Below, piece by piece: positions 20,618-22,532 of a stretch of DNA of 38,499 nt (position 1 is its first letter; the number at the start of each line of letters is the position of its first letter). Made by a program: the position numbers and the translations under genes. Under the pieces are notes generated by a model. It was not told the DNA's origin and did no database searches. It was given only the letters and a program-made list of their open reading frames with translations. The DNA comes from a virus (Duplodnaviria; Heunggongvirae; Uroviricota; Caudoviricetes): the IMG/VR virus record IMGVR_UViG_2711768065_000005, one strand, 5' to 3'.

Positions 20618-21645
<1,028 letters not shown>

Positions 21646-21772
21646 GGATATTTATCAGGATTTATCAGTTTCTAATCTCTAGATATGTTAAGCACTCAGC
21701 CCGTCAGTGGTGGATACTGGCGTGTGTAATAAAGGGGGGATGGCTGATTACCTCTGATAAGGGAATGTAACT

Positions 21773-22069
21773 ATGAACGGTATAGATCCATTCAAACCAA
21801 TCAGTAAGCAACTTGATGTGGTATTACCACAACTGACAAAACACAACGACCTTCTGGATAAAGTGTTGCCTTTTTATATTGCTGTTACCGCAAAATTATC
21901 AGGTAAAACTCGAGAAGAGGTTCTCAAATATAACATGCTGGCTTTAGAAACAATTTTTGGCTCAGAAAAAGCGGGAAAATCACCCAAAGAGCTGGCAGAA
22001 TCTCAATTTGCTTATATGACAAATATAAGAGTATCCGAAATCTTTGATAAGCTACCAGACATTGAATAA
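21773..22069 (+). CDS. Hypothetical protein, opposite strand, inserted between holin and endolysin
   Basis: 98-aa ORF with plausible RBS (aagggaatgtaactATG); no recognised motif. Confidence 0.4.
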   Translation: MNGIDPFKPISKQLDVVLPQLTKHNDLLDKVLPFYIAVTAKLSGKTREEVLKYNMLALETIFGSEKAGKSPKELAESQFAYMTNIRVSEIFDKLPDIE

Positions 22070-22093
22070 TTTCTAAGCGGCAGTAATGCCGCT

Positions 22094-22312
22094 TTATATT
22101 TTTTCAGCCAAATCTCTCAAGAACTGTTTGGCATGTTTTACCGCAGTAACTTCATAATAATCCAAACCAGCTCCTTCAAGTCGCTCAAGGTTGATGTTCA
22201 GATCAAAAATTTCACCGGCAAAACGTTCTTTGTCCTGTAACGTTAAGATTACCGTAACTTTATTCTCAAAATTGCGGGTCCCTTTCACAATCAGTTCATA
22301 GTTTTTAGTCAT
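22094..22312 (-). CDS. Hypothetical protein between holin and endolysin
   Basis: 72-aa ORF directly downstream of the holin on the late strand; no TM segment; no recognised motif. Confidence 0.35.
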   Translation of the reverse strand: MTKNYELIVKGTRNFENKVTVILTLQDKERFAGEIFDLNINLERLEGAGLDYYEVTAVKHAKQFLRDLAEKI

Positions 22313-22316
22313 TGTC

Positions 22317-22532
22317 TTACTCTCCTCTCGCAGCCTTACGCCTGTCTTCTTTAATCTTGAAATAAAGGTTTGTCAGATACGTCAGCAGGCCAAAAACCAG
22401 GCTACCCAGCACACCGATTGCAGCCCACTGTGACGGAGTTACTTTATCGAGTAACTGCAATGCCCAGAAACCAGCATTACCCGCCGATGTGCCATAGGCA
22501 ACACCTGTTGTTAACTTATCCATTGATTTCAT
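22317..22532 (-). CDS. S: Class II pinholin, phage 21 S-like, dual-start motif
   Basis: [71 protein letters not shown] is near-identical in pattern to S21 (two TMDs, Met1-Lys-Ser-Met4 dual start, C-terminal KAARGE); GAGG Shine-Dalgarno. Confidence 0.85.

Follow-up and report, generated by a model that had tools for sequence, protein, structure and literature searches.

The window analysed here, the whole 38,499-nucleotide (nt) stretch of Caudoviricetes DNA in IMG/VR virus record IMGVR_UViG_2711768065_000005, belongs to a lambdoid prophage whose late genes lie on the minus strand and whose lysis region holds two small genes between the holin and the endolysin. Read in the late direction, the order is a Q-like antiterminator, cspF-/cspB-like and YnfU-like open reading frames (ORFs), the holin, a gene for a 72-amino-acid (aa) protein (ORF72), a gene for a 98-aa protein on the opposite strand (ORF98), the lysozyme and Rz/Rz1. 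We consider it probable that this is a standard lysis cassette of the phage-21/Qin type carrying an antisense moron at its YdfR/R junction, with ORF98 as a cargo that would be expressed in the lysogen, silenced during late transcription, and of benefit to the lysogen.

A pinholin cassette with two small genes between holin and endolysin

The holin (22317-22532, minus strand; 71 aa) is an S21-type pinholin, assigned to PHROG holin families and to PF04971 'Bacteriophage P21 holin S' (E 4.4e-34, 116.7 bits against a cut-off of 26). Its hydrophobic maximum is 1.72, and its N-terminus, which reads MKSMDK from 22532 downwards, 3' of GGTGAGGA, has the Met1/Met4 dual-start motif from which both an antiholin and a holin would be predicted. 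The endolysin (21112-21645, minus strand; 177 aa) matches PF00959 (E 2e-23), its translation contains the catalytic E-x8-D-x5-T motif, and two PDB lysozymes, 4zpu (RrrD) and 3hde, which we take to be the phage 21 endolysin R21, align with it along its full length. Residues 8-28 are weakly hydrophobic and rich in Ala, Gly and Ser, with the highest 19-residue Kyte-Doolittle mean (1.78) at residue 9, a composition and hydropathy compatible with a predicted signal-anchor-release (SAR) N-terminus. The cassette is completed by an Rz-like spanin of the DUF2514 family (20618-21115, minus strand; PF10721, E 4e-38; phrog_312) and by an Rz1-like ORF with the lipobox LTSC, taken from the ORF list, which is nested in Rz in the +1 frame (20668-20964). 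A first-pass annotation of the same DNA had proposed a matched pinholin and SAR endolysin separated by about 670 bp that hold a 72-aa late-strand ORF and a 98-aa opposite-strand ORF. The domain matches, the holin N-terminus and the two lysozyme alignments uphold this pairing, the gap measures 671 bp (21646-22316), and all four ORFs lie at the coordinates it gave.

The late-strand gene in this gap, which the annotation treated as an oddity, is a usual resident of such cassettes. ORF72 (22094-22312, minus strand) is a short form of the DUF1327/YdfR family (PF07041, E 2e-26, 92.3 bits against a cut-off of 25), its residues 1-72 falling on profile positions 1-72 of 93, and it starts 4 nt past the holin stop codon, with GGAGAG as its Shine-Dalgarno sequence. 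Genes of this family are the normal occupants of the space between S and R in Qin-like prophages: Tritos and mEp460 have S, YdfR (103-104 aa) and R closely packed on a single strand, holin-YdfR pairs are frequent among coliphages, and K-12 Qin presumably has the same order of S, YdfR and R. The C-terminal tail of the 103-118-aa YdfR members is not present in ORF72, which ends at residue 72 (...RDLAEKI). In an alignment with Tritos and mEp460 its DNA stays near canonical ydfR for the first ~140 nt (about codon 45) and decays beyond, and similarity to the canonical cassette resumes only at ATCCTGATAAATATCC-ATG, 5' of the endolysin; ORF72 therefore represents the conserved family core only. The DUF1327 copy of Cronobacter is likewise of the short form, and against it ORF72 has a ratio of non-synonymous to synonymous substitution rates (dN/dS) of ~0.17. 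RefSeq annotates the protein as WP_000165360.1, and its AlphaFold2 model (pLDDT 84) consists of three beta strands and one helix. The short DUF1327 gene probably came in, or recombined, along with the moron.

ORF98 (21773-22069, plus strand) has its own AAGGGA Shine-Dalgarno sequence (21759-21764, plus strand) 8 nt 5' of the ATG, in agreement with the ribosome-binding site assigned to it in the first-pass annotation. The gene is under strong purifying selection, with a dN/dS of 0.08 against the Cronobacter copy, synonymous sites that are saturated against more distant copies, amino-acid identities of 35-85% across genera and 27 invariant columns in the family alignment; ORF98 and ORF72 are both real genes. 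The ORF98 family is small (16 clusters in 5.8 billion proteins and 4 representatives in 1.84 billion), its named members are all from Enterobacterales, and it belongs to a PHROG of no assigned function, with no match in Pfam, NCBIfam, PADLOC or PDB. Its AlphaFold2 model (pLDDT 88) has four helices and found no informative neighbour in structure comparison, and hydropathy reveals no transmembrane or signal segment in either ORF98 or ORF72, and no hydrophobic segment in ORF98. As modelled, ORF98 is a small, soluble, all-alpha four-helix protein of the cytoplasm. Homology searches and structure prediction, which had been put forward as checks on both small proteins, thus gave a DUF1327 match for ORF72, an orphan in the case of ORF98, and confident models for both.

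An intrinsic terminator of the ORF98 transcript (22075-22104, plus strand; from a terminator scan) begins 5 nt past the ORF98 stop codon and consists of the stem AAGCGGC/GCCGCTT followed by TATATTTTTT. It was flagged for the plus strand alone, the late strand being without a U-tract, and the stem shares its last base with the DUF1327 stop codon, of which it is the first base. In most ORF98 loci examined a corresponding hairpin likewise overlaps the 3' end of the convergent gene, one locus (L015) being different. The 6-nt loop (22082-22087) is inverted between the window (AGTAAT on the plus strand) and phage Evi (ATTACT), with identical stems, and this difference looks like a hairpin-loop inversion of the template-switch type. 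G+C content is 36-41% in the moron module against 48-53% in the holin and endolysin.

Further upstream in the late direction, the Q-like antiterminator (24436-25188) is separated from the holin by a cspF-like gene (23802-24014, plus strand) and a cspB-like gene (23286-23501, minus strand), both of the cold-shock type, and by a YnfU-like zinc-ribbon ORF (22701-22922, plus strand; PF23499, E 6e-31). This region is AT-rich (31-40% G+C), and we assume that it resembles the corresponding part of K-12 Qin.

The promoter-like block, the leader and their distribution

The most distinctive feature of the locus, which the first-pass annotation did not report, is a conserved structured leader upstream of ORF98. 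Approximately 125 nt 5' of the gene are conserved in every ORF98 locus, even where protein identity is 35-65%, and in the window we recognise here a promoter-like block (21646-21693, plus strand) followed by a leader of ~80 nt (21694-21772, plus strand). The block, which is conserved together with its spacing across 99 non-redundant upstream regions, directly adjoins the endolysin start codon (CAT at 21643-21645) and contains the remnant of a dyad with TATCAGG (21653-21659), 24 nt, and a -10-like TATGTT (21684-21689). The consensus layout of the 99 regions is a late-strand intrinsic terminator, the dyad ACTGnTnnnnTATCAGG, 24 nt, TAtGtT, ~6 nt and UCAGCC; the late-strand terminator is missing in the window, where the block adjoins the endolysin ATG. 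We considered the dyad as a LexA box, yet its CTG-N9-CAG is one bp short of LexA spacing, and manual comparison with the CRP, FNR and sigma-54 consensus sites likewise failed.

Two side observations concern the borders of this block. At most canonical leader loci, for example that of HK022 (1425-1452 of locus L083), AAAAA-GCCACC-N4-GGTGGC with covarying stems stands just 5' of the dyad, and this reads as a putative late-strand hairpin and T-run terminator placed right before the next late gene, such as gpJ. In the window, the moron/endolysin boundary (21646-21672) is marked by a tandem duplication, ATTTATCAGG ATTTATCAGT. Moreover, R of mEp460, a phage without the moron, natively has ATCCTGATAAATATCC-ATG upstream of it, and the presence of this sequence in both mEp460 and the window suggests recombination at shared sequence.

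A covariance model of the leader finds one copy in the window (21694-21777, 76 bits, E 4.5e-18), and no further copies there. Three helices are predicted: P1 pairs UCAGCC (21696-21701) with GGCUGA (21742-21747), P2 is a hairpin of 21702-21709 with 21715-21722, and P3, a GAGG/CCUC hairpin by the Shine-Dalgarno sequence, joins 21734-21738 to 21751-21755. Each leader alignment was ascertained through a conserved motif. Among 34 leaders retrieved by their 3' core, P2 has changes on both sides in 6 of its 8 pairs (48 cells), with a covariation score of 0.236 against 0.129 in shuffles and at most 0.10 in slid controls, and among 65 leaders retrieved by their 5' half, P3 has changes on both sides in 4 of 6 pairs; the Perceval variant of P3 is AUGGGG/CCCCAU. 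P1 is invariant and is picked together with P2 by RNAalifold, but because the retrieval motifs included one P1 strand its support is invariance only. The 3' strand of P1 sits in the loop of P3, and the three helices therefore imply a pseudoknot or alternative folds; in Xenorhabdus-type leaders P1 and P3 are kept and P2 is absent. Frequent G·U pairs on the plus strand, which would turn into A·C on the opposite one, argue that it is the sense RNA that is structured, and an element acting on the late strand is disfavoured by these mismatches. A five-codon upstream ORF in the leader core (ATG GCT GAT TAC CTC TGA, 21740-21757) was also rejected, its stop codon not being conserved elsewhere. The same core (21740-21757) resembles what we take to be the 3' end of 16S rRNA (GAUCACCUCC), i.e. 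the anti-Shine-Dalgarno sequence. No Rfam family matched window positions 21500-22400 at E up to 1, nor the leader position in seven other loci, and we regard the leader, with its covarying helices, as a candidate for a new structured RNA.

In 58-61 of 5426 complete Escherichia coli genomes (~1%) the ORF98 segment recurs at 99.3-100% identity, with both ORFs annotated by RefSeq, and phage Evi has the same module; the arrangement is therefore not an assembly oddity. Evi was presumably isolated as a phage and, if this is correct, the insert does not prevent lysis. ORF98 homologues are always antisense within late operons, at six positions: the S/R junction, after an Rz fragment and before terminase (Cronobacter), between tape-measure gene and gpM, between gpM and gpL, 5' of gpJ, and 5' of the holin. 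Such differing positions indicate a mobile unit.

The leader is distributed considerably more widely than ORF98. A scan of one genome per species with a 19-nt core, GGATGGCTGATNAMCTCTG, gave 66 loci, ~48 of them in Enterobacterales, with Xenorhabdus, Photorhabdus, Pantoea, Enterobacter, Citrobacter, Serratia, Rahnella, Erwinia, Kluyvera, Leclercia and Pectobacterium among the genera represented. Block and leader are conserved in at least 15 enterobacterial genera, at least 120 leader stretches are present in IMG/VR, and the same promoter and leader precede at least 117 distinct cargos of at least 28 unrelated families, as defined at blastp 1e-4 (at least 181 instances). In E. coli the canonical leader is uncommon (~106 of 5426 genomes). 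Most cargos are of 60-100 aa and nearly all are without a Pfam match, exceptions being a DUF1883 family and a 268-aa DUF6602/NucC-like nuclease. The latter, 3' of a leader at 3908-3993 of locus L128, is a PD-(D/E)xK nuclease (PADLOC PDLC01495, 2.7e-26), and hints that this family of cassettes may carry defence-type effectors. The largest cargo family includes HK022 gp23, labelled in GenBank as 'srb protein; moron gene product', the leader of which scores 88 bits with the covariance model and which is antisense to the late operon. Three prophage contigs (L092, L144 and L027) each have the leader twice, in front of different cargos, so several such cassettes can occur in a single phage.

Other cargos are found at the very junction occupied by ORF98. 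Perceval has a different, unannotated antisense ORF of 79 aa at its YdfR/R junction (1335-1574 of locus L084, plus strand), and the Stx1a phage Stx1_14040 has an unannotated antisense ORF of ~216 aa immediately 5' of R (about 1012-1663 of locus L277, plus strand), both with the same promoter-like block and a variant leader; H-19B has kept only the promoter-like 60 nt. An opposite-strand 'hypothetical protein' in the Stx1_14040 record covers part of the ~216-aa ORF and may be a mis-call. A backwards gene in the lysis cassette, which the first-pass annotation had called unexpected, is therefore recurrent rather than anomalous.

Readings of the antisense gene and its leader

Three features of the insert are those of a moron: it adds DNA between two genes that are neighbours in Tritos and mEp460, it has its own plus-strand terminator, and its G+C content deviates. 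The definition of a moron by Juhala et al. 2000 (cited in PMC3594210) includes expression from the prophage. The unit is ordered as the dyad promoter-like block, the leader from about the predicted transcription start, the Shine-Dalgarno sequence, ORF98 and a one-way, Rho-independent terminator ending on the DUF1327 stop codon. We infer that ORF98 would be made from the repressed prophage, at a time when the late operon is not transcribed. In lytic growth, late transcription modified by Q would pass the hairpin and continue antisense over ORF98 and its leader, and would silence the gene through transcriptional interference and the formation of double-stranded RNA. ORF98 is probably outside the lysis machinery, and its most likely role is the one usual for morons, a benefit to the lysogen such as the exclusion of other phages, defence against them, or an effect on the host. 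The first-pass annotation had offered a moron, a lysis regulator or a toxin-antitoxin-like pair; of these, the moron is the best reading for ORF98, and neither of the other two has direct support. No known toxin, antitoxin or defence homology is apparent for either protein (0 PADLOC families at E up to 1; nothing relevant in NCBIfam or Pfam), ORF98 has no PDB match, both proteins are without a transmembrane segment, and convergent partners and cargos are shuffled among loci.

Most likely the leader serves as a portable module for expression or regulation, setting the stability or translation of the cargo mRNA via a constant host or phage factor. With at least 28 unrelated cargo families behind one leader, it is unlikely that the products regulate themselves through it. 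It is possible, and we suggest it only tentatively, that the leader represents an undescribed class of cis-acting structured RNA which, with the dyad promoter, would form a portable 'socket' for hypervariable small genes antisense to late operons. Such an RNA would combine a 5'-terminal helix or pseudoknot (UCAGCC-GGCUGA), a variable hairpin, and a Shine-Dalgarno/anti-Shine-Dalgarno-like hairpin beside the true ribosome-binding site; its cargos would include ORF98, HK022 gp23, the DUF1883 proteins and the NucC-like nuclease, and it could answer to a constant host or phage factor, possibly the convergent YdfR-like or family B proteins (see below) plus RNase E.

Several results weigh against our preferred interpretation. 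A consensus scan called no consensus sigma-70 promoter for ORF98, and the best manual match, TTATCA-16-TATGTT, agrees at 8 of 12 positions, with a poor -35 and only the -10-like element. Folded as a single sequence, the leader does not exceed shuffled sequence in stability (z = 0.8), and P1 is without covariation support. Finally, a pure single-gene moron model leaves unexplained the small beta-rich partner that accompanies 7 of 7 ORF98 versions.

This last point bears on an alternative in which the short DUF1327 gene and ORF98 work together as a two-gene module, the YdfR-like protein acting on the leader of the antisense mRNA or the two proteins regulating one another. Every distinct ORF98 version (7/7) is convergent with a small late-strand gene, which is the short DUF1327 gene in E. 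coli and Cronobacter and an unrelated 93-99-aa 'family B' elsewhere; its 3' end lies at most about 25 nt from the ORF98 stop codon and overlaps the terminator stem in most loci. The short DUF1327 gene, hairpin, ORF98 and leader are moreover co-inherited in E. coli (between S and R) and in Cronobacter (after the Rz fragment and before terminase), and partners of both kinds are also found beside other cargos with the same leader. The only functional data on YdfR come from work on RNase E: in a 2026 study (PMC13232886), a two-hybrid screen recovered K-12 YdfR as a fragment of residues 1-72, which bound the N-terminal half of RNase E. Tagged YdfR brought down RNase E 1-598 and, as the Strep-tagged protein, RNA, and its overexpression had little effect on the transcriptome. 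The extent of ORF72 corresponds to this RNase E-binding fragment.

We nevertheless consider such a module unlikely. Most YdfR genes are without a neighbouring canonical leader or moron (the canonical leader is in ~106 of 5426 E. coli genomes, against ~5100 with S/YdfR/R-like DNA), and many leader morons are without a DUF1327 or family B partner: such partners stand beside 26 of 117 cargos overall, family B in 21 and DUF1327 in 5 among the matches listed. Family B was tried as a DUF1327 relative and rejected, the two being unrelated in sequence (hhalign probability 0.2%), partner and cargo families are shuffled among loci, and linkage alone predicts that neighbours will be co-inherited. Family B loci that were retrieved independently comprised only loci already tied to the ORF98 family, and so provide no independent test of the partnership. 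As a separate observation, many late-strand partner ORFs (e.g. those of loci L113, L140 and L042) begin with MTLEQRVEALEK and have unrelated tails that overlap the 3' end of the cargo, and some of these MTLEQRVEALEK partners are fused to a family-B-like domain (phrog_11851).

It is far less probable still that one or both small proteins tune lysis by the pinholin and SAR endolysin. The YdfR family does stand between S and R in many lambdoid phages, the DUF1327 start is placed for translational coupling to the holin stop, and the promoter-like dyad of ORF98 overlaps the start codon of the endolysin. However, both proteins are devoid of transmembrane and signal segments, and the orientation of ORF98 is wrong for late expression. 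Homologues of ORF98 mostly lie among tail genes rather than lysis genes, the experiments on YdfR concern RNase E only, and phage 21 itself lyses although it is not known to have such genes. That both ORFs might be chance frames in a long intergenic spacer, which the first-pass annotation had named as its own refutation and which the lack of an annotated function and the very small family of ORF98 would fit, is already refuted by conservation in related prophages (dN/dS 0.08 and ~0.17), the Pfam match of ORF72 (E 2e-26), the conservation of ORF98 across genera between which synonymous sites are saturated, and the confident models.

Significance and comparison with known systems

Morons, S21/R21 cassettes and YdfR are already known, as is the GenBank moron label of HK022 gp23. 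In the open-access literature searched, we found no description of a covarying leader and promoter shared across at least 28 cargo families, none of recurrent insertion between YdfR and R or of an association with YdfR-like or family B genes, and nothing relevant on 'srb'. The lysis cassette itself is ordinary, and the interest of the locus lies in the recurrent, partly unannotated backwards genes at the YdfR/R junction. A promoter and leader shared by dozens of unrelated orphan genes in at least 15 genera can serve as a simple sequence tag in the search for genes with probable prophage expression in the lysogen, a class rich in exclusion, defence and host-modulating functions. Furthermore, because the leader is often paired with YdfR-like genes, the sole published lead on YdfR, its binding to RNase E, becomes directly testable.

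The cassette shares its holin family, dual start, predicted SAR-type lysozyme and Rz/Rz1 with those of phage 21 (S21, R21, Rz/Rz1) and K-12 Qin (essQ-ydfR-rrrQ-rzpQ), and resembles Tritos and mEp460 in having a DUF1327 gene directly 3' of the holin. It differs from the phage 21 and Qin cassettes in that this gene is trimmed to a 72-aa core, and from canonical cassettes, in which ydfR overlaps or nearly abuts R, in the ~450 bp that lie between the two and make up the antisense unit of promoter-like block, leader, ORF98 and terminator. A close likeness for the insert is the 'srb' moron of HK022 (gp23, 5' of the gpJ homologue), which is likewise extra DNA with its own terminator, lower G+C content, and the same block and leader, in antisense orientation; the ORF98 protein, however, is unrelated to gp23, and the insertion site in the window is inside the lysis cassette.

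Prophage-like elements of Bacillus subtilis contain type I toxin-antitoxin loci, among them bsrG/SR4 and txpA/RatA, whose convergent units overlap at their 3' ends, and the present locus resembles them in having two small convergent units in a prophage with a common terminator region. In contrast to these loci, it encodes two soluble proteins and no hydrophobic toxin-like peptide, its partner is a late-operon gene rather than a small RNA, and no toxin-antitoxin model of PADLOC or NCBIfam matches at the locus. Leaders that control mRNA stability or translation include the 5' stem-loop of ompA and the leader pseudoknot of T4 gene 32. The leader of ORF98 has no sequence or Rfam relationship to either, but shares with them a helix at the predicted 5' end of the transcript and a hairpin or pseudoknot just 5' of the Shine-Dalgarno sequence.

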